Shown here piece by piece: positions 3,934 to 61,742 of a stretch of 64,000 bases of DNA. Source of the DNA: an uncultured Chloroflexia bacterium (GTDB lineage Bacteria > Chloroflexota > Anaerolineae > CG2-30-64-16); NCBI GenBank assembly GCA_963810095.1, contig CAWEMM010000006.1, forward strand, positions 1,419,353-1,483,352, written 5' to 3'. The position numbers and the translations under genes were made by a program. The notes under the pieces were generated by a model that was given only the letters and a program-made list of their open reading frames with translations, was not told the DNA's origin and ran no database searches. Within the stretch, counting starts at the first letter, position 1. Each line of letters opens with the position of its first letter.

Positions 3934-4738
3934 CGAACGGCCGTTGATCCTGTTGACCAACGACGACGGGATTGCTTCGCCCGGGTTGCTGGCGGCAGCG
4001 GAGGCGGTGTGCGACCTGGGCGAACTGCTAATTGTCGCGCCCGCCACCCAACAGACAGGGATGGGTCGCGGCACGCCGCCGATCCTAAACGGGGCGCTGA
4101 CGGTCGAGACGCTGCGGGTCGGGTGCGAGGACGTCCGTGTGTATGCATTGAACGGCTCGCCCGCGCAGACGGTCGTGATTGCGGTGCTTGGCATCGCGGA
4201 GCGGCGGCCGGCGCTGGTGGTCTCAGGCATCAACCACGGCGAGAACCTGGGCACGGCGGTGACCGGGTCGGGCACGGTTGGGGCGGCGCTGCAGGCGGCC
4301 GAAATGGGGATTCCGGGCTTGGCCGTATCGCTCGAGGTCGAGAAGGTCTACCACTACAACCACGCCGAAGACTTGCACTGGAGCGCGGCCGCGCACTTTA
4401 CGCGCTATTTTGCACAGCGCATGCTGGCCCAGACCATGCCGTTCGACGTCGACGTGCTCAAGGTGGACGTGCCGGCCGAGGCGACTGCCGAGACGCCCTG
4501 GCGTATCACAAGACAGGCGCGGCAGTCGTATTACAAGGTCTATCCGCCAAAGATGCGTCTGGCGCCCGGGCCGCTGGCAGAGCTCGACTATGGGATCGAG
4601 ATCGATTGGGATGACCTGCCGCAGGACACGGACGTCTACGTCTTTGCGCGCGAGCGGGTGGTGTCGGTGACGCCGTTGAGCCAGGATCTGACGTCACGTA
4701 CGGACGTTGCCGGCCTGGAGCGCCTGCTGCGGGGCTAG
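3926..4738 (+). CDS. surE: 5'/3'-nucleotidase SurE
   Basis: N-terminal LLTNDDGI motif. 270 aa, typical SurE length. Confidence 0.9.
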   Translation: MADERPLILLTNDDGIASPGLLAAAEAVCDLGELLIVAPATQQTGMGRGTPPILNGALTVETLRVGCEDVRVYALNGSPAQTVVIAVLGIAERRPALVVSGINHGENLGTAVTGSGTVGAALQAAEMGIPGLAVSLEVEKVYHYNHAEDLHWSAAAHFTRYFAQRMLAQTMPFDVDVLKVDVPAEATAETPWRITRQARQSYYKVYPPKMRLAPGPLAELDYGIEIDWDDLPQDTDVYVFARERVVSVTPLSQDLTSRTDVAGLERLLRG

Positions 4739-4784
4739 TGTTTGGTGGGCGACCGGCCAGAGCATGACGGGGCAAATGGTGATG

Positions 4785-5081
4785 TTTGTTGGGGGCCGTC
4801 TGGCCCCCAACGCCCCCGACGGGGGGCTGCGCCCCCTCGTCCCCCAAAGGTTAAGGGGACGCGTGGCTTCCGCCAATTGGCCCATTTGAGCGTCCACATG
4901 GCGGGGCCAGACGGAAGCGGCTTGCGGGAAACCGGCATTTTGTGGAAGCACGGTTCTGATGCCGACTGCCGTGAGCGAGTCCGGCTGCTGCCCGCTGTCA
5001 ACACGGCCGGGGGCGTTGACCTTGGGGGTTTCGGGGGCAAGGCCCCCGAGGCGGGGGCGGCGGGGCAAGCCTGCCCCCGCC
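4785..5081 (+). repeat. composite GC-rich palindromic repeat element, copy A (module 1 TTGTTGGGGGCCG..CCCCCAAAGG 4785-4850; spacer with CCGGCATTTT; module 2 GGGGGTTTCGGGGGCAAGGCCCCCGAGGCGGGG 5021-5081)
   Basis: The same modules recur at 14937-15135, 42901-43290, 58390-58476 and 61603-61740. Stacked perfect hairpins read directly. Confidence 0.6.
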
Positions 5082-5135
5082 AAGACAAGATGTAGCAAGG
5101 GCGGCGGGGCAAGCCGGCCACAACAGTGAGGTTAA

Positions 5136-11055: not shown

Positions 11056-12315
11056 CTACTCCTGCAGGCACTTGAGACAGTAATCCACTTCTTCGCGTGT
11101 GTTGTAGTGCGCCAGGCCCGCGCGCACTACGCCGCCGCTTTCTTCGATCCCCAGGCGCTCGGTGACGGCCAGCGCATAGAAGTTGCCCGACCATACATAC
11201 ACGCCGCGGCGAGCCAGGTGCTCGGCCACCTCGTCCGGATGCTTGCCCGCGAGCCGGAACGCGGCCGTCGGGGTGCGCCGGTCGAACTGGCTTGGATCGG
11301 CGATGCCGTAGAAGGTCAGGCCGGGGATGGCCCGCAGGCCCTGGGCGAAGTGCGCGAACAGGTCCCGCTCATACGCCTTGATGGCGGCCATCGCCTGCTT
11401 CAACGCCAGCCGGCTGCCTGTGAAGCCCGGGAATTGGCCCTCAAACTCGCCTCCGCACATGCTCCCGAGCTCGGCCAGATACTCGACCGCGGCCAGAACG
11501 CCCGCCTGCGCCTCGTGGGCCTGGGTGCCCGTCTCGAACTTGTCGGGCGACGCGTTGCCGGCCGGACGCACCTTGTAGGCCCGCAGCTGCTCCAGAAGCT
11601 CGTGCCGGCCCCACAGCGTGCCCGAGTGCGGGCCGAAAAACTTGTAAGGCGAGCAGATCAGGAAGTCGCAGCCGAGCGCCTGCACGTCGACCGGACCGTG
11701 CGGGACGTAGTGCACCGCATCGACCCATAACCATGCGCCGGCCGCGTGAACCAGGCGGGCAATCTCGGGGATCGGATTGACCGTCCCGACCGCGTTCGAG
11801 GCGTAGCCGACCGCTACGAGCTTGGTCTTGGGGCCGAGCTTGCTCTGCAGGTCGTCGAGGCGCAGCGTGCAGTCTGCCGGGTCGAAGTCGACCTCCTTGA
11901 CCACAACCCCCTTTTCGGCCAGCGCAAGCCAGGGTGCGCGATTTGCGTCGTGGTCGAGCTTCGTGATGAGCACCTCGTCGCCGGGGGCCAGCTCGCGGCC
12001 GATGGCCCGGCTGACGGCAAACGTGAGCGTGGTCATGTTGGCGCCGAAGACGATCTCGGCGGGCGAGGCCGCGTTGAGCAGATCGGCCATGGCCTCATGC
12101 GCGGCGTGCAGCACTGCGTCGCTCTCGCGGGAGGTGCGGAACGCGCCCCCATGGTTGGCGTTCGATCGGATGAGGTAATGCGCCATCGCATCGATCACGC
12201 GCTGGGGCACCTGGGTGCCGCCGGGTCCGTCGAAGTAGACGGCCGGCCGGCCCGCGTCGACCAGGGCGAGCGCGGGGAACTGGGAACGGACGAAGGAAAG
12301 GTCTAGCTGAGACAT
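11056..12315 (-). CDS. aminotransferase class V (cysteine desulfurase-like / isopenicillin-N-epimerase-like PLP enzyme)
   Basis: 419 aa. PLP-lysine motif SPYKFFGPHSG and class-V fold motifs. Confidence 0.85.
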   Translation of the reverse strand: MSQLDLSFVRSQFPALALVDAGRPAVYFDGPGGTQVPQRVIDAMAHYLIRSNANHGGAFRTSRESDAVLHAAHEAMADLLNAASPAEIVFGANMTTLTFAVSRAIGRELAPGDEVLITKLDHDANRAPWLALAEKGVVVKEVDFDPADCTLRLDDLQSKLGPKTKLVAVGYASNAVGTVNPIPEIARLVHAAGAWLWVDAVHYVPHGPVDVQALGCDFLICSPYKFFGPHSGTLWGRHELLEQLRAYKVRPAGNASPDKFETGTQAHEAQAGVLAAVEYLAELGSMCGGEFEGQFPGFTGSRLALKQAMAAIKAYERDLFAHFAQGLRAIPGLTFYGIADPSQFDRRTPTAAFRLAGKHPDEVAEHLARRGVYVWSGNFYALAVTERLGIEESGGVVRAGLAHYNTREEVDYCLKCLQE

Positions 12316-13076: not shown

Positions 13077-14936
13077 ATGAACCTGTCTCCCAGCGTCCCT
13101 GCCCCGCGCCCTGCGCCCCTCGCACGAGTTACAGCCTGGCTGCGTCGCGATGTGCACCTGTGGTTGGCCCTACTCCTGGTCGTCCCTGCAATGCTGCCGC
13201 TCTTCGCGCCGGGCTACTTCGTGAAAGCCCACGACGCGCGGCACAGCATCTTCTTCCTGGTCGAGTTCGACCGCAGTTTCAGCGAGGGCGCCTTGTGGCC
13301 CGTGTGGGGGCCCGACCATGCCGTCGGATTCGGCTATCCGACGTTCTTGTTGTACGCACCGCTCGCGTTTTACGTGGGCGAGGCATTCCACCTGCTGGGT
13401 CTTGGCTTCGCCGCGGCGACGAAGGCGACCTGGGCGCTCGGCTTCCTGCTGGGCGCGGCGGGCACCTACCGCCTTAGCCGGCGCTGGTTCACCCCCGCAG
13501 TTGCGCTGGTTGCGAGCCTCGCTTTCACGTACGCGCCGTATCACCTGGGGCAGATCTACGTGCGCGCCGCCCTTGCCGAGTTCATGGCGCTTGCCTGGTT
13601 GCCCTGGGCCGTGCTGGCCTTCTTACGACTGTGGGACGAGCCGGGACCGCGCCGGGCGGCGCTGGCCGGGCTGGCGTTGGCGGCGTTGTTGCTGTTTCAC
13701 ACAGTCTCGACGTTGACCTTCGCGCCGCTGATCGGCGCGCTGCTGGCGCTGCTCCTCGTGCGGGACGCGGTGAAGGCGCGCTCGCTCGTGCGGGCGGTGC
13801 GCTCGCCGCAGGCCGGCTGGACGTTCGTGGCGCTGGTCGTGGCGGGCCTGCTCTCCTGCATCTTCTTCGTGCCCATGCTCCTGGAGCGCGGCGGCGTGGC
13901 ACAGTGGCAGTGGGTCAAGGAGACGTACAGCTACCGGCTGCACTTCGTCTATCCGGGTCAATTCCTGCTTCCCACCTGGGGCTATGGCTACTCCGTGGCA
14001 GGCCCGAACGATGGCATGAGTTTTCAGGTCGGCATCCCGATCTTCCTGCTGGCGGTGCTGGGCGCCGGCGTGGCGCTGCTGAGGCGCGCGCGTCCTGAGC
14101 CGACCGCCTTCCAGCTGGAAGGGGTGGAGGCGCCGGTCGCGCCTCCGGCGGGCGGGCGATTAATGGTCCTGTTCCTCACGGCCGTCACGCTGGTGACCCT
14201 GTTCCTGATGACGCCGGCGGCGCAGGGCATCTGGGATGTGCTGCCCCTGGTGGAGTTAATCCAATTTCCGTGGCGTTTGCTGGCGGTGGTCGTGTTTGCG
14301 CTGGCGCTGCTCGCAGGTTGGGGCGCATGGCTGCTCAACTCGCGTGCCTTGCGCCGGGGACCGCAAGGCGTCAGCCCCTTCGTCTACGTTGCCGGGTTGG
14401 CGCTCATCGTGAGCAGCCTGCCGTTCACGCGGCCCGAGATCGTCCCGCTCAGGCCGCAGGATGAGAGCCCGCTCGCGGTGCTCGACTTCGAGATGGCCTT
14501 CCCCGACATGCGCGGGTTGACCGCGTGGGCCGAGCGGCCGCCCGCGGACGCCGACTCGCCGCTGATTGCCCAGTACCTGGCCGGGCAGCCGCTGCAAAAG
14601 GCGGCGATTGCGTCGGGCTCGGGCACGATTCTCGAGCAGTCGTCCGGTGCGCTGTCGGCGCGGGCGAGCGTGCGCGCGACCGGCCCGTTGTCTCTGCGCT
14701 TCTACACGTATTACTTCCCCGGCTGGCGTGCGACGGTCGACGGGCGGCCTGCTGAGTTGCGGGCTGAGGGCCCGAACGGGCTGATGACGGTGGACGTGCC
14801 GGCCGGCGAGCACGAAGTGCGGGTTACGTTTGGGCAGACCCCGGCGAGGATGGCCGGCCGGTTGCTGGCCGCCCTGGGTGCGCTTCTATGCGTGTTTTTG
14901 CTGGTAAAGGGCAAGCGCAAGGCAATTATCGGCTGA
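13077..14936 (+). CDS. polytopic membrane protein, YfhO/PF10131-like, paralog 3 (intact)
   Basis: PGYFVKAHDARH motif and TM core. C-terminal domain (FPGWRATVDGRPAELRAEG) is homologous to the C-terminus of paralog 2. Confidence 0.75.
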   Translation: MNLSPSVPAPRPAPLARVTAWLRRDVHLWLALLLVVPAMLPLFAPGYFVKAHDARHSIFFLVEFDRSFSEGALWPVWGPDHAVGFGYPTFLLYAPLAFYVGEAFHLLGLGFAAATKATWALGFLLGAAGTYRLSRRWFTPAVALVASLAFTYAPYHLGQIYVRAALAEFMALAWLPWAVLAFLRLWDEPGPRRAALAGLALAALLLFHTVSTLTFAPLIGALLALLLVRDAVKARSLVRAVRSPQAGWTFVALVVAGLLSCIFFVPMLLERGGVAQWQWVKETYSYRLHFVYPGQFLLPTWGYGYSVAGPNDGMSFQVGIPIFLLAVLGAGVALLRRARPEPTAFQLEGVEAPVAPPAGGRLMVLFLTAVTLVTLFLMTPAAQGIWDVLPLVELIQFPWRLLAVVVFALALLAGWGAWLLNSRALRRGPQGVSPFVYVAGLALIVSSLPFTRPEIVPLRPQDESPLAVLDFEMAFPDMRGLTAWAERPPADADSPLIAQYLAGQPLQKAAIASGSGTILEQSSGALSARASVRATGPLSLRFYTYYFPGWRATVDGRPAELRAEGPNGLMTVDVPAGEHEVRVTFGQTPARMAGRLLAALGALLCVFLLVKGKRKAIIG

Positions 14937-15135
14937 CGCCTGATGACTATTTTGCGGGGGCGCTCTTGCCCCCGCCGCCCCGACGCGAGTGGCTGCCCAC
15001 GACCGACTCATTGGCGGGGAGCGCTCTCGCCCCCGACGCGAGGGGTTGCCACGACCGACTCATTGGCGGGAGCGCTCTTGCCCCCGCCGCCCCCGACCAG
15101 GGGCTGCGCCCCTTGGAACCCCAAAGGCAGCGCTG
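14937..15135 (+). repeat. GC-rich repeat element, copy B, containing a roughly 56-nt tandem duplication (about 2.5 copies, 14957-15124)
   Basis: GCGCTCTTGCCCCCGCCGCCCCGAC...CGACTCATTGGCGGG repeats. Ends with GGGGCTGCGCCCCTTGGAACCCCAAAGG, as in the other copies. Confidence 0.55.
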
Positions 15136-15322
15136 TAGGTACACGTTCGCCTGGATAAGTCACTGTACGGGGGATGAGCCAGGGCGGCAGGAACCATGCG
15201 TGTGGTTACAACGCCTAACGGGCCACACGGCTGATGAAGGCAGCCGGCCCGCCGTAAGCGTTGCCTTCGGAGGTTCTGGGGGCGGCGGCGGCATGACATT
15301 GGTCGTATCTGCCTGGGCAAAC

Positions 15323-15351
15323 TTGCGTTTGTTCGTGCAGATTATTATAAT
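15323..15351 (+). promoter_or_regulatory. sigma70-like promoter (-35 TTGCGT, 17 nt, -10 TATAAT); TSS about 15358 predicts a leaderless mRNA for the CDS at 15362
   Basis: Hexamers read directly. Confidence 0.45.
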
Positions 15352-17360: not shown

Positions 17361-19095
<1,735 letters not shown>

Positions 19096-19280
19096 GGAGA
19101 GCTCTCGACTCGCGTGCGCCCACGGCTCCGCATCCTTCGATTACGCTGCGCTCCGCTCGGCCTGTTTTTTCGTTGCGGCCGTGCGGCGTGAGCTGTTTTT
19201 GTCCCGCGGTTGTTCATGCTATACTTGCGCCACTTAGAGAGGCTTGAGGACGGGTTTCCACGCAGACAAGGAGCGCGCAG

Positions 19281-19502
19281 ATGGATTTCGGCAAGTTCTT
19301 GCTGGGGTTGTTGGTGGGTGCGGCCAGTGGCGCCGCTGCCGCGTTGATGCTGACGCCTCAGTCAGGCGAGGCGACGCAGAACTCGATTCGCGAGCGCGTG
19401 CAGCTCGTCATGGACGAGGGGAAGCGCGCGGCTGCCGAGCGGCGGGCCGAACTCGAAGCCCAATTTGCGCAAGCGCGGCAGACGCCTCGGCTAGAGGGCT
19501 GA
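19281..19502 (+). CDS. YtxH-like small membrane-associated protein
   Basis: MDFGKFLLGLLVGAASGAAAALMLTPQSGEATQ is the typical YtxH N-terminus. RBS GGAG. Confidence 0.7.
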   Translation: MDFGKFLLGLLVGAASGAAAALMLTPQSGEATQNSIRERVQLVMDEGKRAAAERRAELEAQFAQARQTPRLEG

Positions 19503-19537
19503 CCGAGCGGCGCCGGCATTGTCGAGAGGGGGCTCAG

Positions 19538-20293
19538 GTGCTGACCAGCAAGCTCGAGGCCGCGCAGACCCGTCTCCGCGAACGCTCGTATCCCCATTTT
19601 GCCTGGCTGATCAACAAGGAGATCCCCTGGACCGCCCCCACGCGCCCGCTGCGCGAGTCTTCGGTGGCGCTGCTCAGCACCTGCGGACTGTACTGCCTGG
19701 ATAGCCAAGTGCCGTTTGATGCCTGGAACGACGCCGGCGACCCGTCGTTTCGCGAGATTCATATCGACACTCCGGTCGACCGGCTGGCGATCTCGCATTC
19801 GCATTACGATCATGAGCAGGTCAGGTCCGATCTGAACGTGGCCCTGCCCTTGGCCCGCTTCCGGCAGCTCGTCGAGGAGGGGGTGGTCGGGACGCTGCAT
19901 CCCTGGGCCTACAGCTTCATGGGCTACCTCCCCGAAGCGTTTCAACTGATCAGAAAGACGGCGCCCCAGGTGGCAAAGCGGCTGGCGGGGAGTGGGGTGC
20001 ACGCGGCCTTCCTGACCCCCTGCTGACCGATCTGCCAACAGTCCGTTGGACTGATCGCACGGGCCATCGAAGCGGAGGGCATCCCGACCGTTTGCGTCGT
20101 GATGAATCGCGACATTGCGGAGAACGTGGGCATTCCGCGAGCCTTGCACGTGCATTTTCCGTACGGCGCGCCGCTGGGGCCGGCCGCGCACGTGGAGACG
20201 CAAATGGCCGTGATCCGGGAGGCGCTCGGCCTGCTTGCCACGGCGACTGGCCCGGGGCAGATTCTGGAATCCACGGTCGAGTGGCCGGAGTGA
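19538..20293 (+). CDS. candidate selenoprotein, PrdB/GrdB (glycine/proline reductase selenoprotein B) family-like, with in-frame TGA (Sec) at 20024-20026
   Basis: ORFs 19244..20026 and 20099..20293 share one reading frame, separated only by that TGA. A Cys sits directly before the TGA (C-U-P-I-C). A hairpin begins 9 nt downstream. Size about 251 aa with Sec163. Confidence 0.55.
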
Positions 20294-20329
20294 CCGGCTT
20301 TTCTCAGTGATTCTTCAGGAGGAAGACTC

Positions 20330-20593
20330 GTGCGCGTCAGCATCGAATTCTGCGTAGCCTGAAACTACACGCCGCGGGCCGCCAGTTTGGCGGAAACTTT
20401 GGTCAACACCTTCAAGCCTTTCGTGGGCGGGAAACATCCCATCGAGTCCATCACCCTGATCCCCTCGGGCAATGGCCGCTACGAGGTCACGCTTGACGAC
20501 GAGCTGGTCTACTCAAAGGCCGCAACGGGCAAACACACGACAAACGAGTTTATCGTCGACCAGGTGCGAGCAAGACTGAAACTGCAACACTAG
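20330..20593 (+). CDS. selW: SelW-like (Rdx family) selenoprotein with in-frame TGA (Sec11) at 20360-20362
   Basis: GTG start preceded by AGGAGGA. Translation MRVSIEFCVAUNYTPRAASL continues into ORF 20387..20593. Canonical IE(F/Y)C-x-x-U motif. Hairpin CCGCC-AGTTT-GGCGG downstream. Confidence 0.8.
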
Positions 20594-20603
20594 CCAACAA
20601 TCT

Positions 20604-21953
20604 ATGATCGACATCTCGCTGATCATCACCATCGGCGCCATCTTTCTTTTGTCGCTGACGGCCGCATATTTGCGTTCCCGAACGAGAGACCGCTGCCTGA
20701 AGTCTTGGGAAGGATTTCACGTAACGCTGGAGCGCACGAACGGCAAGCTGGTGTGGGGTGAGCTGCACGTGGTGTCGACGGGGATGGAGTTCGTCTATGC
20801 CGGGTCGGTGCAGGACGAACGCCACCTCGAGTCCTCCTATCTTCTATATGCCTCGGAGTACGCCGAGATCCAGGCGCTCTACCGCTACGTCGCCGACCTG
20901 TCGGACCAGAGCAAGCAGCAACGGCTGCGCGACATCGATTCCTCCTTCCACCCGAACCCTGCGCGCCGCCTGCGCCGCGACGCGCAGAACTTCTTCGGCA
21001 CCGCCACCGACTCCCTGAACGAAGTCATCGGCCTCGTCGTCGGCCGGGCGGGCAAAGTGGGCGGCCGCTATATCGCCGCCGACGGCACGTCCTCGATCAA
21101 GAGCCTGAGCGGCAAGGTGCTCGGCCAGGTCGGCTCGATTTACGATCCGCTCCTCGAACGCTATATTGGGAGCCGCGTCGTGATCGAGTTGCTCGAGGGC
21201 CAGGAGGTGCACGAGCATGTGGGGATCTTGCGGAATTACAGCCAGGACTTCATCGAAATTCTCGACGTGCGTTATCCGCAGCGGCGGTCGGTTGCAGTCG
21301 AGGCAGGTGGGCGGGTCGAAGGAGAGGGGTTAATCGTCGAAAAGGTGCCCGGCAGGATCCATCTGCGCAACTGCAATGACTGGCCGGTGCTGGTCCATTC
21401 GCTGGCTTATGCGGACCACGAGGAGATGATTAATGCGGTCGTCGACGGCGACGAGGAAATCGACCTGAACGTGGAAGACGTGTCCGCACAATCCGTTAAG
21501 CTGATCGTGCGCATTCCGGAAGAACTCGACTTTATCGTGCCGCGCAGCCGCTGCGTGGTGCGTCACCGGGCGGAACAGTACCGCCAGGCCGATTTCAAAG
21601 CGCTCGTCGAGGATGTCGTTTTCGACGTGGGAAGGATATTCTCGACCAGCGGCCGCGACAACGGCCACGACAATACCGAGGCGCGGCTGCGTCAAGATGT
21701 GCGCCGGGACCCGATGAACGCGGCGGCCGCGGCTAACCTCGGATTTCTCTTAATGCAGCGGGACGAGTTGGCCGAGGCTGAGAAGTGGCTGCGGCATGCG
21801 CTGCAGTTCGAGTATTCGCTGCCCGACGGCGGCCGCCGGACGCGCATGCAACTGCGCGAGATCGAACGGCGCCGCGAGGGGTTGGATGCCTATGTCCAGG
21901 GTGCGATTCAGTCCTCGCCGACCGTCATTGGAGGCGAAGGCTCGGATTTGTGA
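20604..21953 (+). CDS. hypothetical membrane-anchored protein (N-terminal TM, C-terminal helical region)
   Basis: 449-aa ORF starting 10 nt after the selW-like stop. No family recognised. Confidence 0.55.
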   Translation: MIDISLIITIGAIFLLSLTAAYLRSRTRDRCLKSWEGFHVTLERTNGKLVWGELHVVSTGMEFVYAGSVQDERHLESSYLLYASEYAEIQALYRYVADLSDQSKQQRLRDIDSSFHPNPARRLRRDAQNFFGTATDSLNEVIGLVVGRAGKVGGRYIAADGTSSIKSLSGKVLGQVGSIYDPLLERYIGSRVVIELLEGQEVHEHVGILRNYSQDFIEILDVRYPQRRSVAVEAGGRVEGEGLIVEKVPGRIHLRNCNDWPVLVHSLAYADHEEMINAVVDGDEEIDLNVEDVSAQSVKLIVRIPEELDFIVPRSRCVVRHRAEQYRQADFKALVEDVVFDVGRIFSTSGRDNGHDNTEARLRQDVRRDPMNAAAAANLGFLLMQRDELAEAEKWLRHALQFEYSLPDGGRRTRMQLREIERRREGLDAYVQGAIQSSPTVIGGEGSDL

Positions 21954-35298: not shown

Positions 35299-35381
35299 GC
35301 CGAAGTGGCGGAACGGTAGACGCGACGGTCTCAAACACCGTTGGGGGTTGCCCCATGTGGGTTCGATTCCCACCTTCGGCA
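35299..35381 (+). tRNA. tRNA-Leu (anticodon CAA), type II with long variable arm, no encoded CCA
   Basis: Cloverleaf folded by hand. Acceptor GCCGAAG/CTTCGGC. Anticodon stem ACGGT/ACCGT with loop CTCAAAC. T-loop GGTTCGATTCC. Confidence 0.9.
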
Positions 35382-40391: not shown

Positions 40392-42888
40392 ATGCCGCCA
40401 TTGGTGAAAGCAACCGCCGCCACGCTAAGCGCCACCCTGACCGGCGTTGGTCGCGCCCGCCGGCCCACGCTGAAAGGCCATCTGCGACTCCCCGAGTTGA
40501 GCGGCCCGGTCGAGGTCTTTCGGGATGCGTGGGGGGTGCCCCATCTCTACGCCGGCAGCGCGGCGGATCTCTGTTTCGCGCAGGGCTTTGTCCATGCCCA
40601 GGACCGGCTTTGGCAGATGGATTTCCAGCGCCGCCTCGTCGCCGGCCGGCTGGCCGAGGTATTGGGGCCGGCGGTGGTGGGCGTGGACCGCAGCCTGCGG
40701 GTGCTCGGCATGTACCGGGTGGCAGAGGCGGAGGTAAGCCTCCTGAGCGCGGAGGCGCGGCGAGAGGCTGAGGCCTACGCCTCGGGCGTCAACGCGGCCA
40801 TCGAACGGCAGCCGCTGCCGGTCGAGTTCACCTTGCTGCGCTACCGGCCTTACCCTTGGCGAGCGGCGGACTCGCTGTGCTGGGCGAAGATGATGTCATG
40901 GGCGCTGTCGGTCAACTGGGAGAGCGAGCTGCTGCGCGCGAGGCTGATCGAAGTGCTGGGCGTAGAGCGGGCCGCGCAGCTCGAGCCGCTGCTGGCAAGC
41001 CCGATTGTAACGGGGGGCGAGCGGCGTCCCGCGCACCCCTACGGGCCGCTGCCGCCGCGGAATGCGGCGCAAGGACGTGAAGGGGCCGCTCAAGCCGACA
41101 GCGCACCAGAAATCCACATGCCTTCCACGCCGGGCACCCCCGGCAGCAATAACTGGGTCATTGCTGGCGCGCACACGGCCAGCGGCAAGCCCCTTCTGGC
41201 GAACGATATGCACCTGTTGGTCTCCGCGCCGGCCATCTGGTACGAGAACCACCTTGTCTGCACCGATCCCGGCAGCCCGGTCGACGTCACCGGCGTTTCA
41301 TTTCCCGGGATTCCTTTTGTGGTCGCCGGGCATAATGACCGCGTGGCCTGGGGCTTTACCAACGGCTTCCCCGACGTGCAGGACCTGTTTGTCGAGCACC
41401 TCCGCCGGACCGAGCGCGGGGTGGAGTACGAGCACCGGGGCCAATGGCTGCCCGCCGAGGTGCGGCGGGAGGAAATCCGGGTCAAGGGCGAGGCCGCGGT
41501 AACGGAAGAAGTCATCGTCACGGTCCACGGGCCGGTCATCAACCGGCTGGCGGTGGGACTGGCGATGCAGCCCGGCGCGGACGGTCTGCCTGAGCAGCCG
41601 CTCGCGTTGTGCTGGACCTCGCTGACGCCCCACCCAATGGTGGAGTCGCTGCGGGCCATGAACCGGGCGAGTTCGTGCGCCGAGTTCCGGGAAGCCTTGC
41701 GCGGCTGGGTCGCGCCGACCCAGAACGTGGTCTATGCGGACACGGACGGCAACATCGGCTACACCTTCGCCGGTCGAGTGCCGATCCGCCCGCGGGGCGA
41801 AGGCCGCGTGCCCGCGCCGGGCTGGACCGGCGAGTATGACTGGGCAGGCTGGATTCCTTTTGAGGAATTGCCGCACCAACAGAACCCGGCCGAGGGCTAC
41901 ATCGTGTCGGCCAACAACCAGCCGGTCGACGAGAGTTATCCGTACTTCATCGGGCGGGAGTTTGCCCTGGGCGACCGGGCCGGCCGGATTGCCGAGCTCA
42001 TCCGCTCGGGTTCCGCCATCAAGCCGAGCGACATCCGGATCATGCAGCTGGACCAGGAGGCGTCGTCGCTGAAGCGGCTCGCGAGTGTCTTGGGCGGGCT
42101 GGAGCCCTCCGAGCCGGAGCTGCGGGGCTTGGTGACCCTGGTCAGGGCATGGGACGGCCGGCTGACGGCGGAAACCCCTGCGGGCACGATCTGCGAGATC
42201 AGCGGCCCGCGAGGTGCAGATGCTGGTGATGAGGGCCGTGTTGGGCGAAGCCGGCGTTAGCGTGACGCCTGAGAACCCGATTCCCCTCGTCGAACGGGTG
42301 TTGGGTCGCGGGCCCACCCCTGGGATCCAGGACTTTAGCGCTTTCTATCACCGAGTTTGGGAGTGGCTGTACTCGGTGTTGGAGGAGCCGGCGTCGGAGT
42401 GGTGGGATCTGGGGGGCGGCGAGACGCGCGACGACGTGCTGCTGGTTGCGCTCCGGCGCACCTACGACTACCTCGCCGACCGACTGGGCCAGCCTGACCT
42501 GCCCGGCTACGCACAATGGGCGTGGGGCCGGCTTCATACCGTGACGTTCGGGCACGTTGCCGGGCAGGCCCCCACGGTGGCGCGCCATTTCAATCGCGGC
42601 CCGTACCCGGTCGGTGGAGATGAAAACACGGTGTTTGCGACCGGCGGCGGTGTGACCCCCGAAGCCAGCCGGGCCGTGGTCGCGCCGCCCTTCCGCTTCA
42701 TCGCGGACCTGTCCGACTTGTCGCGCTGCTACGGCTTGCTGGCCCCGGGCAACTCGGGGCGACCTGACAGCCCGCACTATGATGACCAGGTTGAGGCGTG
42801 GTTCAAGGGAAAGTATCATCCGATGCTGTACAAGCGGGAGGATGTGGAGCGGGGCGCCCGGCGCAAGCTCATTTTGGCGCCGGCATAG
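40392..42888 (+). CDS. penicillin amidase (S45 Ntn-hydrolase family); apparent frameshift near 42200
   Basis: Alpha-subunit motifs plus the SNNW nucleophile region in ORF 40392..42260. C-terminal region in ORF 42214..42888. Confidence 0.75.
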
Positions 42889-42900
42889 GGGGGCTTTCTT

Positions 42901-43290
42901 TTGTTGGGGGCCGCCGGCCCCATCCATTGGATATGTCTTCTGTTGGGGGCCGCCGGCCCCCAACGCCCCGGCCGAGGGGCTGCGCCCCCTCGACCCCCAA
43001 ACTTACTCGGGGAACAGTTCATTTGTGGAGCAACGGCTGGGGCCCACGGACCGCTGCGGGGCTGCCAGTTGCGGGCTTGCACGAGGCCGGCATTTTAGGA
43101 AATGCGCGAGCAATAGCCTCCTCGGGGACATGCAGACGCCGATCTCTTTGGCGATAACTACGCCAGGAGCGTAGCAATTGGGGGTCTCGGGGGCAACGCC
43201 CCCGAGGCGGGGTTGGCAGGGGCCGGCCGGCCCCTGCCAAAAGACCGGAACCTCGAAGCGGGGTGGACGGAGGCCGCCGGCCCCTGCCTA
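42901..43290 (+). repeat. composite GC-rich repeat element, copy C (module 1 duplicated at 42901-43001; module 2 at 43177-43290)
   Basis: Same modules as copy A, including the spacer motif CCGGCATTTT. Confidence 0.55.
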
Positions 43291-49075: not shown

Positions 49076-49170
49076 GGGGTGCTCCGTTCACGTACTTCGG
49101 GCGGATTATAGCATACGGTCCGACGCCCACCAAGGCATCTTCATTCCGTTTCGCGTGTGTGTTATGATGA

Positions 49171-51416
49171 TTGCTCCCTATGGCACGCAGCATCGTCGAT
49201 CTAAGCACCCTTCCATGGCGTTTCGGCCAGGTCGCCCGCCAGGGCTTTTCGCACGCGGCCGAGCGACGACCGGCGCGCGGTCGCCAACTGGGAACCCGCG
49301 TCAGTCCCCGGCGACGTGCGAGCGGATCTGCTGGCGACGGGATATCTGCGCGGCCTGGATACACCGGAGGATCTTCCGCGGTCAGGCTGGGTGGACAGCG
49401 TCGACTGGTGGTATCGGGTCGATATCGATCCGGTCGAACCGGGAACCACGGTGGTTCTCGAAGCCGACGGGATCGACTACCTCAGCAGCGTGTGGCTGGA
49501 TGGAGAGTTTCTGGCCGCGCACCAGGGCATGTTTGCGCGGCAGGCACTCGTGCTCCCGCCGCCGCATGGAGGCGCCCGGGAAGCACGAGCTGGCGGTGCG
49601 GATTTGGGGCGCGGGTGCGCTGCCGCGCCTCCCCAACCCTCCGCTGCGCCGGGGCCTGCGCCGGCTGATCTGCGGCCTGGGTGTCGTCGACGAATACTTC
49701 CCCGATCGCCTCGCCACCCCCAAAGCGCAATACAGCTTCGGGTGGGACTTCGCGCCGCGCGTGCTGAGCACGGGCATCTGGGACGGCATCCGCCTGGTCC
49801 ACTGCCGGGGCGCCTATCTTTCCGACGTGCAGGTGCTTGCCGAGCCGCTGAGCGAGGGCGACCCGACCCCTGTCCGCTGGACCGTGCGGCTTACGACCCG
49901 GCGATTCGAGGAGCAGCGGCTCACTGCGCGGGTCGAGCTGCGCACGCTCGAAGGTGAACGGATCCCGCTGGCGCGCGATACCTTCGCGTTGGGCGAGGGC
50001 AATGCGGCGGACCTGGTCTTTGATTCGCCGCGACTGGCCCGCTGGTGGCCGTGGGACCAGGGTGAGCCGGCCCTCTACCGCCTTTCAGTTCGACTGTTCG
50101 ACGAGCGCGGGCCGGCCGACGAGGCGGAGACGGTGGTCGGGCGTGCGCACGGTGGGCCGCGAGCGCTTCAAGAACGGGCAGCCCTGGCGTTTCACGGTCA
50201 ACGGCCGCTCGGTCTTCCTGCGCGGGGCGAACTGGGTGCCCGCCGACATCCTGCCCGGCCGGGTGGCCGAGAATGACTATGCCGGCCTGATCGGGCAGGC
50301 GCGGGCCGGGGGGGTCAACTTCCTGCGGGTGTGGGGCGGCGGCATCCGCGAGAAGCCCGCGTTCTGGGAGCTGTGCAACCGGCAGGGCATCCTGGTCATG
50401 CAGGAGTTCCCCCTCGCTTGCACGTTCCTCGATCACTACCCGCGCGATCCGGGCTACCTCTCCGTGCTCGAGTCTGAGGCGCAAGGCATCGTCCGCGGCT
50501 TGCGCAACCACCCAAGTCTGATCGCCTGGTGCGGGGGCAACGAGATCAGCCCGCAACGTGAGCGGCTTCCTCTGCGTACTATTGAGCGGGTGCTGGCGCG
50601 CGAAGACCCCGGCCGGCCCTGGATTCCGGCTTCTCCGTCGACAGGGCGACATCCACAACTGGGACGTGTGGCATGGCGGCGCGCCCTGGCAGTCGTTGGC
50701 GCGGGTTCGCGCCCCGTTCATGAGCGAGTTCGGCGTGCAGGCGCTGCCCCATGCCGACACCATCGCCGAGATGTTTCCGTCGGGCCCGCCCACGCGGCTG
50801 GACGATGCCGGGTGGGCCGCGCGCAAGCTGCAGGCCGACAAGCTGCGTCACTACTGTGGGCCCTTGCCCGAAGAGGACCTGGTAGCCACGATTGAGGCTA
50901 CTCAGAGGACGCAGGCCGCGGCTCTGCAGGCGGGGATCGAGGCGTGCCGGCTCCGCCGCGAGGGCTCGGGCAGCCCGCGCCCATGCGGCGGGCGTGGCCT
51001 TCTGGCAGTTCAATGAGCCGTGGCCCGCGGTCTCCTGGTCCCTGGTCGACCGGCGCGGCCGGCCAAAGGCGGCCTACAGTATGCTCATGCGCAGCTACCA
51101 ACCCCTGCTCGTGGCGGCCGTGTTCGAGCGGCGGGCATGGCGGGCGGGCGACCGGTTCGACGCCGAGATCTGGGTGGTGAACGACGGGGCGGAAGAAGCA
51201 GCAGAGGGCGAAGTCGAGGCGCTGTTGGACGGGCGCAGCGTCTGCCCACGCAGCCGCGTCGCGGCGCCTCCCGCGTCTGCCCGGCAGGTTGGGGCATTCG
51301 GCGTGCAGTTGGCGGGGCCCCCGGCCACCCTCGCGTTGGCGTGGCGGGCAGGCGGTGCGGTTCTTGCCGCCAACGAGTATGACCTGCAGGTCTACTTGCC
51401 GCCGCCGCAGCCCTGA
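49171..51416 (+). pseudogene. beta-mannosidase-like GH2 glycoside hydrolase, broken into at least 4 frames
   Basis: GH2 segments (RGANWVP, NEISPQRE, FWQFNEPWPAVSWSLVD) spread over ORFs 49316..49957, 49954..50895 and 50892..51416. Confidence 0.6.
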
Positions 51417-55539: not shown

Positions 55540-58386
55540 CTAGCATCGAAGCCTGGCGGATCGTTCCCTACGAAGGAGGCGCATCGCCCGTTCAAGAAGG
55601 TGCGGGTGCGCGACGAGGCCGCGGGTGCGCGCGGTCGTGCGGCACCTGATGAACGACGAGTGCGTCGCCTTGCTCGGTCCGCCCATGAGCGAGAAGAGCC
55701 ACCTGCTGCGGGACGTGGCGGAGGCGCTGGAGCAGGGCGGTCGCTTCCGGCCGCTGCATATCGACTTGTGGCGCACACGATCGAACGATGAGGCCGCCTT
55801 CTTCACCAGCCTTGCCGAGTCTGCTGGCCGACGAGCTGCGGGACGCCGGCGCCGCGAGTCCCGACGAGCCGGCCGAGCACGCGCGGTTCCAGGGTTATCT
55901 CGCCGCTTGCGAATGCGAGCGGCCGCAGCCTTGCGCTGCTGATCGATCACCTGCAGGCGCTGCCGCACGACCTCGTCCACAGCCTGCTGCGTCGCCCTGC
56001 GCGCGGCCTACATGGAGCGCGAGGCCGACGCGCCGCACAGCCTGGTCGCGGTGGTCACCGGCGGCATCAACCTCGTCGGTCTGTCCGTCCGGCCCGACCT
56101 CGCCGTTCAACATCGCCAAACCCGTGGTCGCGACACCGCTGACCCTCGAACAGAGCCGCGCGCTGGCCGAGGCGACGCTCAAGCGCTGGAGTGCTCGGCA
56201 TCCGCCAACGGCATGGACCGCTTGCTGAGCCTGGGCGCAGGCGACCGGTACCTGATTCCGCGGCTCTGCGCCGACAGCTCCGAACTGGTCAGCTTGCACC
56301 GCCTGCACCGCGTGACGTCGGCCATTGCGGATCGCGCCGGCGCGGGCGCTCGTCGCCCGCGGACGCGGCCGCCGCCCGTTCGCGCCGCCATCCGCATGAT
56401 CGAGGAAGACCCGGACACGGTGCTGGACGTGCTGCACCTGCTCGACCACGGCTCGCTGCCGCGCTCACGCTCGCGCCAGATGCCGACGCGCACCGGCACG
56501 GACCGGCTGCAGCTCTCGGGCGCGGTGGTCCTGGTCGGATGGGTGCTACGGCTTTATGAACGAGGCGTACCGCGAGGCGTTGGCCGCGCACTTCACCACC
56601 GACCGGGTCGGGCACATGTTGCGGATTGCCGGGCCGGTGGAGCGAGGCGATCGCCTATCTCGCGCCGCAGCGGGCGCGCGTCGCGCGTCCGCAGCTGCTC
56701 GAAGCCATCGTCCAGATCGATCTATGCGAGCTGACTCGTCCGAACAGGCGTATCGGGCTGCTGGCCGACGGCCTGCGGCTCGGCTTCGGCCTGTCGGACA
56801 TCGGCATCTACTGCGGCGCTGCCGGCCGACTGCTCAGCTCGACCGCGTCTATCCGCCCAAGGACGGCGGCCCGAGGAGCACGTCGACCTGCGCGATCCCG
56901 GGTGCGTCGAGGCCCAGACCTTCAACCTGGGCAACTATGCGCTGCGCGGCACCGCGGATGAGGCGCGCCTGGTCGTCGCGCTGGCATCGGCCAGCCGGCC
57001 GCTCGGCGTCGTGACGATCGAACGCTATGTGCAGAACCGCGATCCGCACGAGCTGCCCGACGAACTGCCCGACCTGCTGCGTTTCCTGCAGCACGCAGTC
57101 CGGGGCGCTGGAAAACGTCATCACTCGGGCTGCCTACCGCGCCATCGGACAGGCCGTGCTGGATGCCAAGGCCATGCAGCCGACCGTGGAGCGGGTGCTC
57201 GAGACGGTAGCGGAGGCGCTTGGGCTGCGACTACGGCGCCCTGTATCTGCGGGATGAGACCGCCGCCAGCTGGAGATGGCCGCAGCAGTCGGCAGGGTGG
57301 TGACGGAGGAGTGGCAGGCGCAGGCGCGCTTTCCCCTCGACGGCCGACACCCCGCGGTCACCGCGCTGCTGGAGGGGCGGATGTTGACGGCGCGAGGGGG
57401 CGAGGACGCAGAGGACCGCGTGCTGCACGACCGTTTCGGCCTGCACCGCTACCTGCGCGTCTTCCTGCCTCTGCTCGCCGGCGGCGAACAGCTCGGCACG
57501 CTCGAACTGGGCTACGCGAGCCGGCCGCATGCGCATGTCGGATGAGCTACAAGCGGACGCTGGTCGAGTTCGCCGACCAGGTGGCGATCGCGGTGCATAA
57601 CATGCTGCTGCTGCGGCGGACGGACGAGGCGCTGGCACGCGCAAGCTGGCCGAGCTTGTCGGTGGGCCGCGAGATTCAGCTCAGCCTGCTGCCGAAGGTC
57701 ACGCCGACCGTTCCCGGCTGGCAGTTCGCGGCCATGTACGAGGCCGCCCGCACCGTCGGCGGCGACTTCTACGACTTCTGCGAATTGCCGGGTCCGCCCG
57801 CATCGGCTGGGCGTCGTCATTGCCGATGTGGCGGACAAGGGCGTGCCGGCCGCGCTGTTCATGGCGGTCAGCCGGACGATCATTCGCAGCGTCGCGCTTC
57901 ACCGGCCGCGGCCCGGCCGTCTGCCCTGATGCGAGCGAACCAACTGATTCTCGCCGACAGCCAGGCCGACCTGTTCCTGAGCGCGATCTACCTGGTGCTC
58001 GAGACCGACAACGGGCGCGGATTTCGTTCAGCAACGCGGGGCACAACCGGCCGCTGCTGGTACCGCGCTGCGGACCGCGCAGCTCACGCGAGCTGACCCA
58101 GCGCGGCATCATCCTGGGCGCGTTCGACGAGATCACGCTGCAGGACGACACGGCTGGACCTGGCCGCCGGCGACGTGCTGGTGCTGTACACGGACGGCGT
58201 CACGGACGCGCTCAACGCGGACGGGCGAGGAGTTCGGCGAGCAGCGCCTGTTCGACGTGGTGCGGGGCAGCGCCGCACGGCAGCGCGCAGGAGATCCTGT
58301 GGGCGATCACGGGCGCGCTGGCGGGCTTCATCGGCGACACGGAGCAGGCGGACGACGTGACCTGCGTCGTGATCAAGAAGGACTAG
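55540..58386 (+). pseudogene. multidomain signalling protein (P-loop NTPase - GAF - PP2C/SpoIIE phosphatase); many frameshifts
   Basis: ALLGPPMSEKSHLL P-loop region. GAF segment. PP2C motifs [45 protein letters not shown]. All are in different frames. Confidence 0.5.
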
Positions 58387-58389
58387 GCC

Positions 58390-58476
58390 TTTGTTTGTTG
58401 GGGCCCGGATGACCCTCAACACCTGGTTGCATGGGCCGCCTTGCTGTTGGGGGCCGTCGGGCCCCCAACGCCCCCG
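58390..58476 (+). repeat. GC-rich repeat element, copy D left part (interrupted by the IS481 insertion)
   Basis: TTGTTGGGGCCCGG...TTGCTGTTGGGGGCCGTCGGGCCCCCAACGCCCCCG ends exactly at the IS terminus. Confidence 0.55.
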
Positions 58477-58562
58477 TGTATAGACCGGGGACATAGTAGA
58501 CAGTCGTTCGGAGACATGGTAGACGCTAGAATGGGAATAACTGCCACCGGAAGGAGGCTGAT

Positions 58563-59705
58563 ATGCCCTGGCGAGAGGCAAATGCCATGTCCTTACGACT
58601 TGATTTCGTGACCCGAGCTGGTCACGAAGCTGCTAACGTGCGGGCCCTGTGCCGCGAGTTCGGTATCAGCCCGAACACTGCGTACAAGTGGCTTGTGCGC
58701 TACCAGGCGGCGGGGCCCGCGGGGCTGGCCGATCGCTCACGGCGCCCGAACGCAGTCCGAGCCGACACGCCGCCCGGCCGCGAACAGTTGGTGCTGGCGA
58801 CGCGCCAGGCCCACCCGGCCTGGGGCGGCCGCAAGCTCAAGGCCTACCTGGAGCAGGCCGGCTATGCGGACGTGCCGGCAGCTTCCACCATCACAGCCAT
58901 TCTGCGCCGGCACGGGGCGCTGGATGACCAGGAGGGCGCTCAGCATCGCGCCTTTCAGCGTTTCGAACGTGAGGCGCCCAACGAGCTGTGGCAGATGGAC
59001 TTCAAGGGCCATTTTGCGCTCGGGGATGGTACGCGCTGCGACCCCTTGACGGTCCTCGACGACCATGCGCGCTTCCTGTTGGCGCTGGACGCCTGTGCCG
59101 ACGAGACCCGCCGCACGGTGCAGGCCGCGCTGACCGGCGTCTTCGAGCGCTACGGCTTGCCCGAGCGCATCCTGTGCGATCATGGGCCACCGTGGGGCGC
59201 CCCCAATGCCGGCGACGTGTACACGACGTTGAGTGCGTGGCTCTTGCGGCTGGGCATCGGGGTCGTGCACGGGCGGCCCAAGCATCCGCAGACGCAAGGC
59301 AAGGACGAGCGATTGCATCGCACGTTGCGGGCCGAGTTGCTGCGCCGGCAGACGTTCGCCGATCTGCCGGCCTGTCAGCCCGCCTTCGATACCTGGCGGC
59401 AGATGTATAATGAACAGCGCCCGCATGAGGCGCTAGCCATGCAGGTGCCGGCGGCCCGCTATCGGCCCAGCCCGCGCCCGTGGCCCGCCCGCCTGCCCGC
59501 GATCGAGTATCCGGCCAGCGACCGAGTGCGCCGGGTGCAAGATAAGGGCCAGATCAAAGTCGGCGGCCACGAGTTTCGCATCGGCAAAGCCTTCATCGGC
59601 TACCCGGTGGGCCTCCGGCCCACGAACCAGGACGGCTGCTATGACGTTTACTTCTGCGCCCAGCGCATTGGCCAAATTCAACTATCCGCCGGGCAACGGA
59701 TTTAG
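58563..59705 (+). CDS. IS481-family transposase (DDE integrase core), intact
   Basis: 380 aa. HTH N-terminus and rve core (WQMDFKGHF...LCDHGPPW...NEQRPHEAL). Confidence 0.9.
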   Translation: MPWREANAMSLRLDFVTRAGHEAANVRALCREFGISPNTAYKWLVRYQAAGPAGLADRSRRPNAVRADTPPGREQLVLATRQAHPAWGGRKLKAYLEQAGYADVPAASTITAILRRHGALDDQEGAQHRAFQRFEREAPNELWQMDFKGHFALGDGTRCDPLTVLDDHARFLLALDACADETRRTVQAALTGVFERYGLPERILCDHGPPWGAPNAGDVYTTLSAWLLRLGIGVVHGRPKHPQTQGKDERLHRTLRAELLRRQTFADLPACQPAFDTWRQMYNEQRPHEALAMQVPAARYRPSPRPWPARLPAIEYPASDRVRRVQDKGQIKVGGHEFRIGKAFIGYPVGLRPTNQDGCYDVYFCAQRIGQIQLSAGQRI

Positions 59706-59804
59706 CTCAGCCTGTGGGTAAGGGGCTGTCCGAAAAGTAATCGGGCGGCCCCTTTTTTGCGTGCTTTTCTCGCGTTCTTTAAGGATTCATGGTTTAATGG
59801 GGGC

Positions 59805-61402
59805 ATGAAACGCAAACCTGCTGCCCCCGTCTTCAAGCCCTACACGATGGCTCAGCCGCAGTTGCTGCCGCCGAGCCTGGATGAGTTGATCGAGCCGGAC
59901 CACCTGGTGCGGGTGGTAAATGCGGCGATCGACCAGTTGGATTTGCGGCCGCTGCTGGCGCAGTACCCCGGCGGCGGGACGTCCAGCTATCATCCGCAGA
60001 TGCTGCTGAAGGTGTTGGTGTACGCCTATTGCAGCAAGATCTACTCGTCGCGGCGGATTGCGGCGGCGCTGCGGGAGAACATTCACTTCATGTGGTTGAG
60101 TGGCGGGAACCGGCCGGACTTTCGCACGATCAACGACTTTCGCGGGCAGCGGATGAAGGGCGTGATCGACGCGGTGTTCGCCGAGGTGCTGCAGTACCTG
60201 GTCGAGGCGGGGTACGTGCAGTTGGAGCACTACTTCGTCGACGGGACGAAGATCGCCGCCGATGCGAACCAGCACAAGGTGGTGTGGGCCAAGCGCACGG
60301 CGCGTTACCAGCAGCGGGTGCGGGAGCAGATCGCGTGAGTTGCTGCGGCAGATCGAGCAGGTGAATGCTGACGAGCAGGCCGAGTACGGCGATGCCGATC
60401 TGGAAGAGCGGGGCCGGCGGTGGGGGTGGCGAGATCGACTCGGACGCAACTCAAGGAGCGCATCGACCAACTCAACCAGCGGCTCCGCGAGCGTCAGCAC
60501 CCCAAGCCCGAAGCCCAGGCAGCCGAGAAGGCGCTGAAGAAACTGGCGACGGATTGTCTGCCGCGGTTGGAGAAGTACGAGCAGCAGACCGCGACGCTGG
60601 CGGGGCGGTCGAGCTATGCCCAGACCGACCCGGACGCCACGTGCATGCGGATGAAGGAAGACCGCGGCGCCGAGCGGCCCTGGCCCAAGCCGGCCTACAA
60701 CGTGCAGGTGGGCACGGAAGGGCAATTCATCGTCGGGTTCAGCGTGCACGACCAGGCGGGCGACACCGGGTGCCTGATCCCGCATCTGGAGCAGGTGCGC
60801 CAGAACACCGGCGGCCGCTTACCGCAGAACGTGGTGGCGGATGCGGGGTACGGCAGCGAAGAGAACTACGCCTATCTGGAACAGCAGCAGGTGGGCAACT
60901 ACCTCAAGTACAACACCTTCTACCAGGACACGCATCATTACCGCGACCCGGCCGTGCTGCGGGCGCACCAGTTCCGGGCCGAGAACTTCGCCTACGACGC
61001 GGCCACCGACACCTTCGTCTGCCCGGCCGGCCAGCGGCTGCACTTCCAGTACACCACCCGCTACACCAGCGACAACGGCTACCTGAGCGACCGCCGCATC
61101 TACGAATGCTTCGCGTGTGCCGACTGCCCGCTGCGCAGCCAGTGCACCCGGGCCAAAGGCAACCGCCAGATTCGCATCAGTTTCCGCTTGCTCGCCTACC
61201 GCAAGCAAGCCCGCGACAACCTGACCAGCGCCGACAGGTGAGCGCTTACGCGCCGCGCGCTCCGTCGAGGTGGAAACCGTCTTCGGGCATATCAAACAGA
61301 ATATGGGCTTCCGGAGATTTCACTTACGCGGGCGGGCGAAAGTGAAGACCGAATGGGGGCTCGTGAGCATCGCTCACAACCTGAAGAAGGTGGCGGCCGC
61401 AT
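59805..61402 (+). pseudogene. IS1182-family transposase split over three frames
   Basis: N-terminal part in ORF 59757..60338, middle in 60420..61241, C-terminal tail (RRAVEVETVFGHIKQNMGFRRFHLRG...) to 61402. Confidence 0.7.
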
Positions 61403-61417
61403 AGGCCGCTTTTTTTC
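61393..61417 (+). terminator. intrinsic terminator (GCGGCC-GCATA-GGCCGC + T7) at the IS1182 transposase 3' end
   Basis: Read directly. Confidence 0.5.
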
Positions 61418-61602
61418 TCCGCTTTCCGCGAGCTCCAACTCATCTCCCGCTGACTCCGAATCGGCACAAGAAAGGGGCTGCCTGGATGTTCTTTCCAGAC
61501 AGCCCCTTACCCACAGGCCCGACGCGACGACACCATTCTTTAAGGTGTTCAGGTGTCTACGATGTCCCCGAACACCTGTCTACGATGTATTCGGTCCATA
61601 CA

Positions 61603-61740: not shown

Positions 61741-61742
61741 CG

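Follow-up and report, generated by a model that had tools for sequence, protein, structure and literature searches.

The window analysed here is a stretch of 64,000 nucleotides of chromosomal DNA from an uncultured Chloroflexia bacterium (contig CAWEMM010000006.1), and it carries four copies (A, B, C and D) of a GC-rich repeat element built around a two-hairpin module. The DNA is ~67% G+C with a GC skew that is positive throughout, and its genes are ordinary housekeeping genes whose nearest protein relatives are found in Chloroflexota/Anaerolineae metagenome-assembled genomes (MAGs). The four elements occupy four unrelated intergenic sites over 57 kb of the window. Each of them starts 0–12 nt past the stop codon of a plus-strand gene, in agreement with the 3′-end location noted in an earlier inspection of the letters alone (the sequence-only reading). 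The upstream genes encode SurE (A), a PTPS_related membrane protein (B) and a penicillin amidase (C), and the fourth is a SpoIIE-like open reading frame (ORF) (D). The genes downstream of A and B are co-directional, and C and D lie between convergent genes. Behind element B a TTGCGT-17-TATAAT box at 15323–15351 is left intact, and relatives have the same box. The insertions sit directly behind stop codons, ahead of any downstream promoter. All four elements share one orientation, but 4/4 is not significant because the window has a plus-strand gene bias and a uniformly positive skew. The density, called unusual in the sequence-only reading, is one element per ~16 kb, which is normal for families of repetitive extragenic palindromes (REPs) or miniature inverted-repeat transposable elements (MITEs), judging from REP counts in E. 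coli and Pseudomonas.

The repeat unit is a module of ~70 nt with the order hp1-CCCCG-hp2-CCCCCAA, in which two hairpins (hp1 and hp2) are joined by a C-rich linker and followed by a C-rich tail; hp2 has a GGGGC-nnn-GCCCC core, and the parts of one example are spelt out in Table 1. Recurrence at the places first noticed is far beyond chance. The hp1 palindrome TTGGGGGCCNNNNGGCCCCCAA has five matches in the window with up to three mismatches (0.07 expected), the motif of a supposed second module, TCGGGGGCAANGCCCCCGAGGCGGGG, has two (0.00 expected), and the spacer motif also has two (0.01 expected). A degenerate module pattern, CCCCGNCN{2,3}GGGGCNNNGCCCCNNNNNNCCCCAA, matches five times (4814+, 5022−, 15091+, 42966+ and 43178−) against 0.00 expected. 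We scanned the whole window using cmsearch with a covariance model of the module (R1). Alignment, together with pattern and covariance-model matches on both strands, shows that the supposed module 2 is simply module 1 in reverse complement; a single module, present in either orientation, had been described as two in a fixed order.

A complete element of ~300–400 bp consists of a left module on the plus strand, a spacer of ~165 nt and a right module on the minus strand, with the two tails facing inward. Each module is predicted to fold as two hairpins (−34 to −50 kcal/mol, z −2 to −4.6), and the predicted fold of the whole element reaches ~−180 kcal/mol (z ~−4.2). The spacer, in which shared motifs had been noted earlier, is shared only in part: a core of 25–40 nt, CGGGGCnGnCAGTnGCnGGCTTGCACGAnnCCGGCATTTT, is common to A, C and D at the same offset (local alignment z=8.8 for C–D and 3.6 for A–C), the remainder of these spacers is unalignable, and the spacer of B is unrelated. 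Because the core keeps its offset in A, C and D, and because a closely matching composite with a 163-nt spacer occurs at locus L036 of another genome, the composite can be treated as one unit. A, C and D each carry an extra degenerate hairpin on the outer side of the left module, and in C there is another beyond the right module. Only A and C are complete copies; the right arm of B is degenerate and shortened, and that of D is missing. The covariance-model scan found no further copy in the window beyond A, B, C and the two halves of D.

Table 1 Parts of the four elements and the insertion within copy D. Positions refer to the window, bits are cmsearch scores, and energies with their z-scores are for predicted folds.
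Feature	Position	Strand	Details
A left module	4780–4852	+	hp1 TTGGGGGCC-GTCT-GGCCCCCAA, linker CGCCCCCG, hp2 ACGGGGGGC-TGC-GCCCCCTCGT, tail CCCCCAAA; 90.2 bits, E=2e-24; two predicted hairpins, −41.4 kcal/mol, z=−3.2; starts 42 nt past SurE stop codon (4736–4738)
A spacer	4853–5016	+	shared core GGCTTGCGGGAAACCGGCATTTT at 4919–4941; same offset as in C, z=3.6
A right module, inverted copy of left	5017–5089	−	74.5 bits; −48.3 kcal/mol, z=−3.5; reverse complement aligns with module 1
B left arm	14945–15129	+	partial module 14945–15041 (29.7 bits) and full module 15057–15129 (77.3 bits); element starts 9 nt past PTPS_related stop codon (14934–14936)
B spacer and decayed, shortened right arm	15130–15296	+	arm ~15263–15292, GGTTCTGGGGGCGGCGGCGGC
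C outer left hairpin, degenerate hp1 copy	42897–42925	+	between amidase stop (42886–42888) and left module
C left module	42934–43005	+	80.4 bits; −37.3 kcal/mol, z=−3.0
C spacer	43006–43172	+	core CGGGGCTGCCAGTTGCGGGCTTGCACGAGGCCGGCATTTT at ~43057–43096
C right module, inverted	43173–43246	−	82.9 bits; −50.2 kcal/mol, z=−4.6
C outer right hairpin	43252–43287		abuts stop (43288–43290, minus strand) of convergent ABC1 kinase gene
D left piece	58392–58476	+	degenerate outer hairpin 58392–58423; module hp1 and linker 58438–58476, 33.6 bits; starts 5 nt past stop of SpoIIE-like ORF (58384–58386)
Interrupting insertion, not part of element D	58477–61602	+	IS481-family insertion sequence, 3126 bp, carrying a nested insertion sequence
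D right piece	61603–61742	+	hp2 and tail 61603–61641 (30.3 bits); spacer core ~61692–61719, CGGGGCCGACAGTGGCAGGCTTGCACGA

The copies differ in their state of preservation. In B, the internal tandem duplication already seen by eye is real and joins the partial to the full module (14978–15090, period 51, 2.2 copies, 90% matches in Tandem Repeats Finder); the inverted repeat 15076–15094 / 15278–15296 is 89% complementary, and the right arm also aligns with A and C. The 35-nt arms of C (42966–43000 / 43178–43212) are 74% complementary. Copy D has no right module, and the convergent LTD-domain gene ends at 61743. Its two pieces belong to a single copy that a 3126-bp insertion sequence has divided, which reduces the count from the at least five copies first proposed to four. 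The insertion sequence produced a 5-bp duplication, CCCCG, at 58472–58476 and 61603–61607, and this falls precisely on the module's linker, between hp1 and hp2.

The outer insertion sequence in D is assigned to the IS481 family by its Pfam domains (rve, LZ_Tnp_IS481) and by homologues named IS481. Its transposase spans 58563–59705, and its ~50-nt inverted repeats, starting TGTATAGACCGGGGACAT, are unrelated to the module ends. Nested inside is an IS5/IS1182-like insertion sequence at 59710–61518 with 28-nt inverted repeats and two ORFs, a DUF772 gene (Pfam) at 59757–60338 and a second at 60365–61345. In a Logan contig from SRR12687343 (L052, 280–341), a 76%-identical IS481-type copy abuts a half module at the same linker position. 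This half module reads CCG-hp2-CCCCCAA (cmsearch E=1.7e-4), with no duplication visible, and the short-read contig is possibly chimeric. A third IS481-type copy (L054) does not abut a half module in this way. The IS481-type copies at module linkers may correspond to the insertion sequences that target REPs.

Some window genes are interrupted in a different way. Two overlapping ORFs cover the penicillin amidase (40392–42260 and 42214–42888), and two likewise a GH2 glycosidase (49155–50276 and 49954–50895), where relatives have one gene each (in L048, of 870 aa and 757 aa). The splits are frameshifts, either in pseudogenes or through long-read indel errors, and the lengths of G/C runs in the modules may therefore also hold assembly errors.

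We then compared the insertion sites with syntenic loci of relatives, obtained via SurE and ABC1-kinase homologues and showing 78–90% protein identity at the tested sites. At A, B and C the relatives' gaps are 0–70 nt long and without the element. At site A, the distance from the SurE stop codon to the next ATG is 19 nt in L042 (85% SurE identity) versus 404 nt in the window. The gap at site B is 45–70 nt in L044, L043 and L042, and window DNA after 15297 aligns with the DNA right behind the stop codon in L042 and L043. At site C, the ends of the convergent amidase and ABC1 genes share a 15-nt segment in L050 (~2666–2680), abut or overlap in L048, and in L051 are parted only by a short duplication of that segment (~11705–11773) without the element; the ~400-nt insert is absent from all three. 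In L049, the closest relative at this site (94%), the sequence ends 27 nt past the stop, and its tail resembles the spacer core, so that this relative may have an element-like sequence at the site. In 108 kb of the relatives' DNA no module was found by nhmmer or by the covariance model (best E=0.14), as against at least eight strong module matches in the 64-kb window. The elements are lineage-specific insertions at A, B and C. A lineage-specific expansion is favoured, as loss everywhere else would be less parsimonious.

The relatives also differ around these sites in other respects. In L042, the PTPS_related and LysM genes form one ORF of 1020 aa (18915–20813 and beyond) in which the intervening stop codon is lost. 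The idea drawn from this fusion, that element B had split a single gene, was rejected, since L044 and L043 have two genes. A DUF3108-YhfC gene is present in the window and in L042 and absent from L043 and L044. Behind the SurE stop of L043 (10814–10870) lies a different, perfect 17-bp palindrome, AGAGACCTCCGAGGTTT...AAACCTCGGAGGTCTC. Element C in the window has on each side one copy of the segment in which the two gene ends overlap in L050 (42875–42890 and 43288–43303).

The elements are non-coding, as the sequence-only reading had it: 1-nt indels inside the modules distinguish the copies, and no ORF overlapping them passes a filter on third-position G+C that recovers real genes. That reading had also offered a family of small-RNA genes, in which the spacer would encode the RNA, the left module would terminate the upstream gene and the right module would terminate the small RNA itself. 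The conserved spacer core at a fixed offset in three copies is what such a gene might look like, and the core of C is able to pair with itself as a small hairpin, GCATTT-TAGG-AAATGC. Neither a consensus sigma-70-like promoter nor an intrinsic terminator came up when A and C were scanned. Rfam at gathering threshold returned only a tRNA (35299–35381) across the whole window, and at a permissive E-value over A and C the best scores were ≤21 bits against thresholds of 34–100, so that no family matched over the elements. Since, in addition, the spacers cannot be aligned beyond the ~25–40-nt core, that of B is unrelated, and close relatives lack the elements altogether, we consider a small-RNA family very improbable.

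Modules of the same architecture occur well beyond the window. A scan with the generic pattern of one genome per GTDB species gave 41 loci, 31 of them from Chloroflexota MAGs. Within single MAGs the matches are spread over 11 contigs (a Dehalococcoidia bin), number eight on seven contigs (a Chloroflexaceae bin) or reach five (another bin). The covariance model detected further copies in these loci that the pattern does not match, many of them in inward-facing inverted pairs 45–300 nt apart. The best match outside the window is L036, in the Anaerolineae MAG Prado092, which has the same layout and starts right behind a stop codon. The order hp1-CCCCG-hp2-CCCCCAA is the same in L036, in the Chloroflexaceae MAG Prado088, in the Dehalococcoidia MAG E14 and in the lewisrun bin as in the window, whereas the hairpin sequences, flanks and spacers of the other Chloroflexota MAGs differ. 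In 93 aligned modules 87.5% of stem cells pair, versus 71% in shuffles, and compensatory double changes occur in 18 of 20 stem pairs while the G4/C4 cores are invariant, all in an alignment that had been fitted to the model. Mismatches in the modelled stems are A.C/C.A in 82 cases and G.T/T.G in 41 (alignment A2), a weak hint that the G-rich reverse strand (TTGGGGG-hp2′-CGGGG-hp1′) is the folding strand. This strand has four G5 tracts and therefore G-quadruplex potential.

The outside families are packaged in several ways. In Prado088 the family forms ~350-nt composites with inward-facing inverted pairs and extra inner inverted repeats. Spacers and flanks at the loci L006, L017, L027 and L031 contain heptamer tandem repeats (GATTGCA, CGGTCTC, CAATCGT and TCCCGTC), which resemble the short tandemly repeated sequences known from filamentous cyanobacteria. 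The E14 module is mostly single and lies inside a ~215-nt MITE with terminal inverted repeats (TIRs), CTAGTGTCC...GGACACTAG; the module tail mostly adjoins a stop codon, with a strong orientation bias of 8/11. Across Dehalococcoidia loci (L003–L039, including L012, L018, L028 and L030) these ~215-nt MITEs have the termini CTAGTGTCCyGA...TCGGGACACTAG and three internal hairpins, the module among them, and they are kept between MAGs of different studies (E14, Baikal-deep-G112 and a third). The same Dehalococcoidia genomes carry a second module type (…CTGGGGGATACCCCCAG…GGGGCTTCGCCCC…), sometimes paired with the first. Look-alike hp-CCCCG-hp-CCCCCAA double hairpins with GGGGCTCCGCCCC cores were seen in Actinomadura, Streptomyces and Spirillospora (L009, L022, L024, L026 and L032), and GGGGCTCCGCCCC double hairpins also in Rhodobacteraceae (L001 and L038). 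They have clustered inverted arrangements and ~1 exact pattern match per genome, and may be relatives, hairpins that arose by convergence and resemble terminators, or chance matches. Exact matches to the window-type hp1 in JGI metagenomes were only three unrelated simple hairpins, and blastn found no match among PLSDB plasmids.

The position of the elements raises the question of whether the host selects them. They could be terminators lacking a U-tract, mRNA 3′ stabilisers or sites for nucleoid proteins or gyrase that spread by recombination and are kept as gene insulators. Their unfailing position, 0–12 nt past a stop codon and before the promoter of the following gene (with the box behind B intact), their very stable predicted folds, the orientation bias of the single E14 modules towards the adjacent stop codon and the retention of the module architecture with compensatory changes across distant lineages all fit such a role. 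Close relatives, however, do without the elements at A, B and C; none of the hairpins is followed by a T-tract, and scanning A and C for terminators gave no match. The copies moreover decay, with one arm of B lost and D truncated and interrupted, and a conserved spacer core and inverted-pair layout would be superfluous for a terminator. Host selection as the primary explanation is thus quite unlikely. Position and predicted stability make it plausible that the elements serve secondarily as barriers at mRNA 3′ ends. An inserted element would be co-transcribed with the upstream gene, and its stable hairpins would then act as a barrier to 3′ exonucleases or to read-through, in which case such insertion sites would be tolerated or mildly useful.

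We favour mobility as the explanation: A, B, C and D are probably four variously decayed copies of a mobile element that is non-autonomous and belongs to the MITE / REP-doublet (REPIN) class. The behaviour of REPs and bacterial interspersed mosaic elements (BIMEs) or of MITEs, suggested at the outset, is borne out by the inverted-repeat architecture and by presence or absence at three orthologous sites. The elements are also small and non-coding, and their TIRs are intact in A and C. The two-hairpin module at both ends would be what a trans-acting enzyme recognises. The mobiliser would be a hairpin-reading, single-strand transposase similar to the HUH-type REP-associated tyrosine transposases (RAYTs) or to the tyrosine transposases linked to TIR repeats (TIRYTs). 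Such an enzyme is favoured over a DDE transposase because both ends consist of hairpins accompanied by conserved C-tract motifs in single-stranded form and because no target duplication of fixed length is seen.

The same class of features could arise from a classical DDE-type MITE, that is, a derivative that an insertion sequence would leave after internal deletion, with the modules as its TIRs and the parent's transposase cutting and pasting it and leaving a short fixed duplication. Small size, TIRs, lack of coding capacity and insertion polymorphism would all suit it, and the related Dehalococcoidia module family is a clear TIR-MITE. Direct repeats of 5 nt can be drawn at A (GATGT, 4781–4785 / 5089–5093) and B (ATGAC, 14943–14947 / 15293–15297). 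They score no better than shuffles, and the repeat at B is suspect as a target-site duplication because the right terminus of B is truncated; C and L036 have no flanking 5-nt repeat. A 15-nt duplication at C was also considered as a target-site duplication and rejected, as it is present without the element in L051. TIRs of 70 nt that are rich in hairpins are atypical for DDE elements, and no insertion sequence with module termini was found in the window or in ~390 kb of module-bearing loci. We therefore regard a DDE-type origin as unlikely.

Several of these results weigh against the REPIN/MITE-class reading as well. No reproducible target-site duplication is seen at A, B, C or L036, and the candidates at A and B are at chance level. 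Neither an autonomous partner nor a Y1_Tnp/RAYT gene is present among the 43 window ORFs scanned, and the 25 commonest Pfam families of 122 module-flanking ORFs elsewhere are housekeeping families without a transposase. The E14 modules are internal to a MITE whose termini are different, so that the module is not always the end that would be visible to a transposase. Modules of different copies are only ~78% identical, which points to a family that is old or was seeded from diverged masters. Finally, the covariation comes from the model-fitted alignment.

A broader proposal is that the module is the signature of an undescribed equivalent of the REP/RAYT system in Chloroflexota, and perhaps in Actinomycetota, given the look-alike GGGGCTCCGCCCC double hairpins there. 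Its HUH/TIRYT-like mover would be equally undescribed, the hairpin-ended elements would also travel as cargo of several unrelated MITE families, and IS481-type insertion sequences would specifically target the linker. We put this forward as a speculative and rather doubtful extension. If the module were the substrate of a dedicated enzyme, the REP/RAYT paradigm would extend beyond Proteobacteria with a different recognition signature. Irrespective of the mover, the analysis contributes one more repeat family, along with a two-hairpin module that can be recognised in several Chloroflexota lineages; in the literature, searched by topic and by sequence strings, we found neither these repeats nor any such family for the phylum. 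Such repeats have practical effects, as they produce false ORF calls and break short-read assemblies. They also mark recent genome rearrangement between close relatives and are candidate 3′-end RNA structures for organisms in which the signals that end transcription are not understood.

Among known systems, REP, BIME and REPIN elements are mobilised by RAYT (Y1 HUH) transposases (Nunvar 2010, PMC2817692; Di Nocera 2013, PMC3733652). The window family resembles them in consisting of extragenic GC-rich palindromes mostly just downstream of genes, in its lineage-specific abundance, and in its frequent inverted dimers with a spacer of conserved length, the arrangement that characterises REPINs. 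Insertion sequences can land inside both, here an IS481-type element in the module linker. It differs in its unit, a ~70-nt double hairpin in place of the single imperfect palindrome of 20–40 nt of a REP, and in its spacer of ~165 nt as opposed to 1–100 nt. The conserved single-stranded motifs are CCCCG and CCCCCAA, the host belongs to the Chloroflexota, and no RAYT was found among the window ORFs scanned. As for the REP tag GTAG/CGTC, CGTC/GACG occurs only in the left module of A, and the other four modules have neither.

TIR repeats associated with TIRYTs are long, partly self-complementary ('double palindromic') inverted repeats (Di Nocera 2013, PMC3733652). These families are moderately abundant and occur in dimers or clusters in genomes without GTAG REPs (PMC3733652). 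The modules are likewise long, partly self-complementary inverted repeats in dimers or clusters. They differ in that the motif GGGGWSAS, reported for several such TIRs, is absent from all elements on both strands, and in that no tyrosine transposase gene has been linked to them.

A third group comprises the Correia elements of Neisseria, ERIC/IRU of enterobacteria and Nezha of cyanobacteria, which like the window elements are non-coding, 100–400 bp long and bounded by TIRs (partly from the background in PMC3733652). Folding into long hairpins, proximity to stop codons and polymorphism between relatives are further shared traits. Their TIRs are short and their target duplications defined (TA for Correia elements), in contrast to the 70-nt double hairpins and the lack of a consistent duplication here. 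The window family does not belong to the GTAG/CGTC REP superfamilies, and it is a new repeat family of the ordinary bacterial MITE/REP-like kind rather than a new kind of system.

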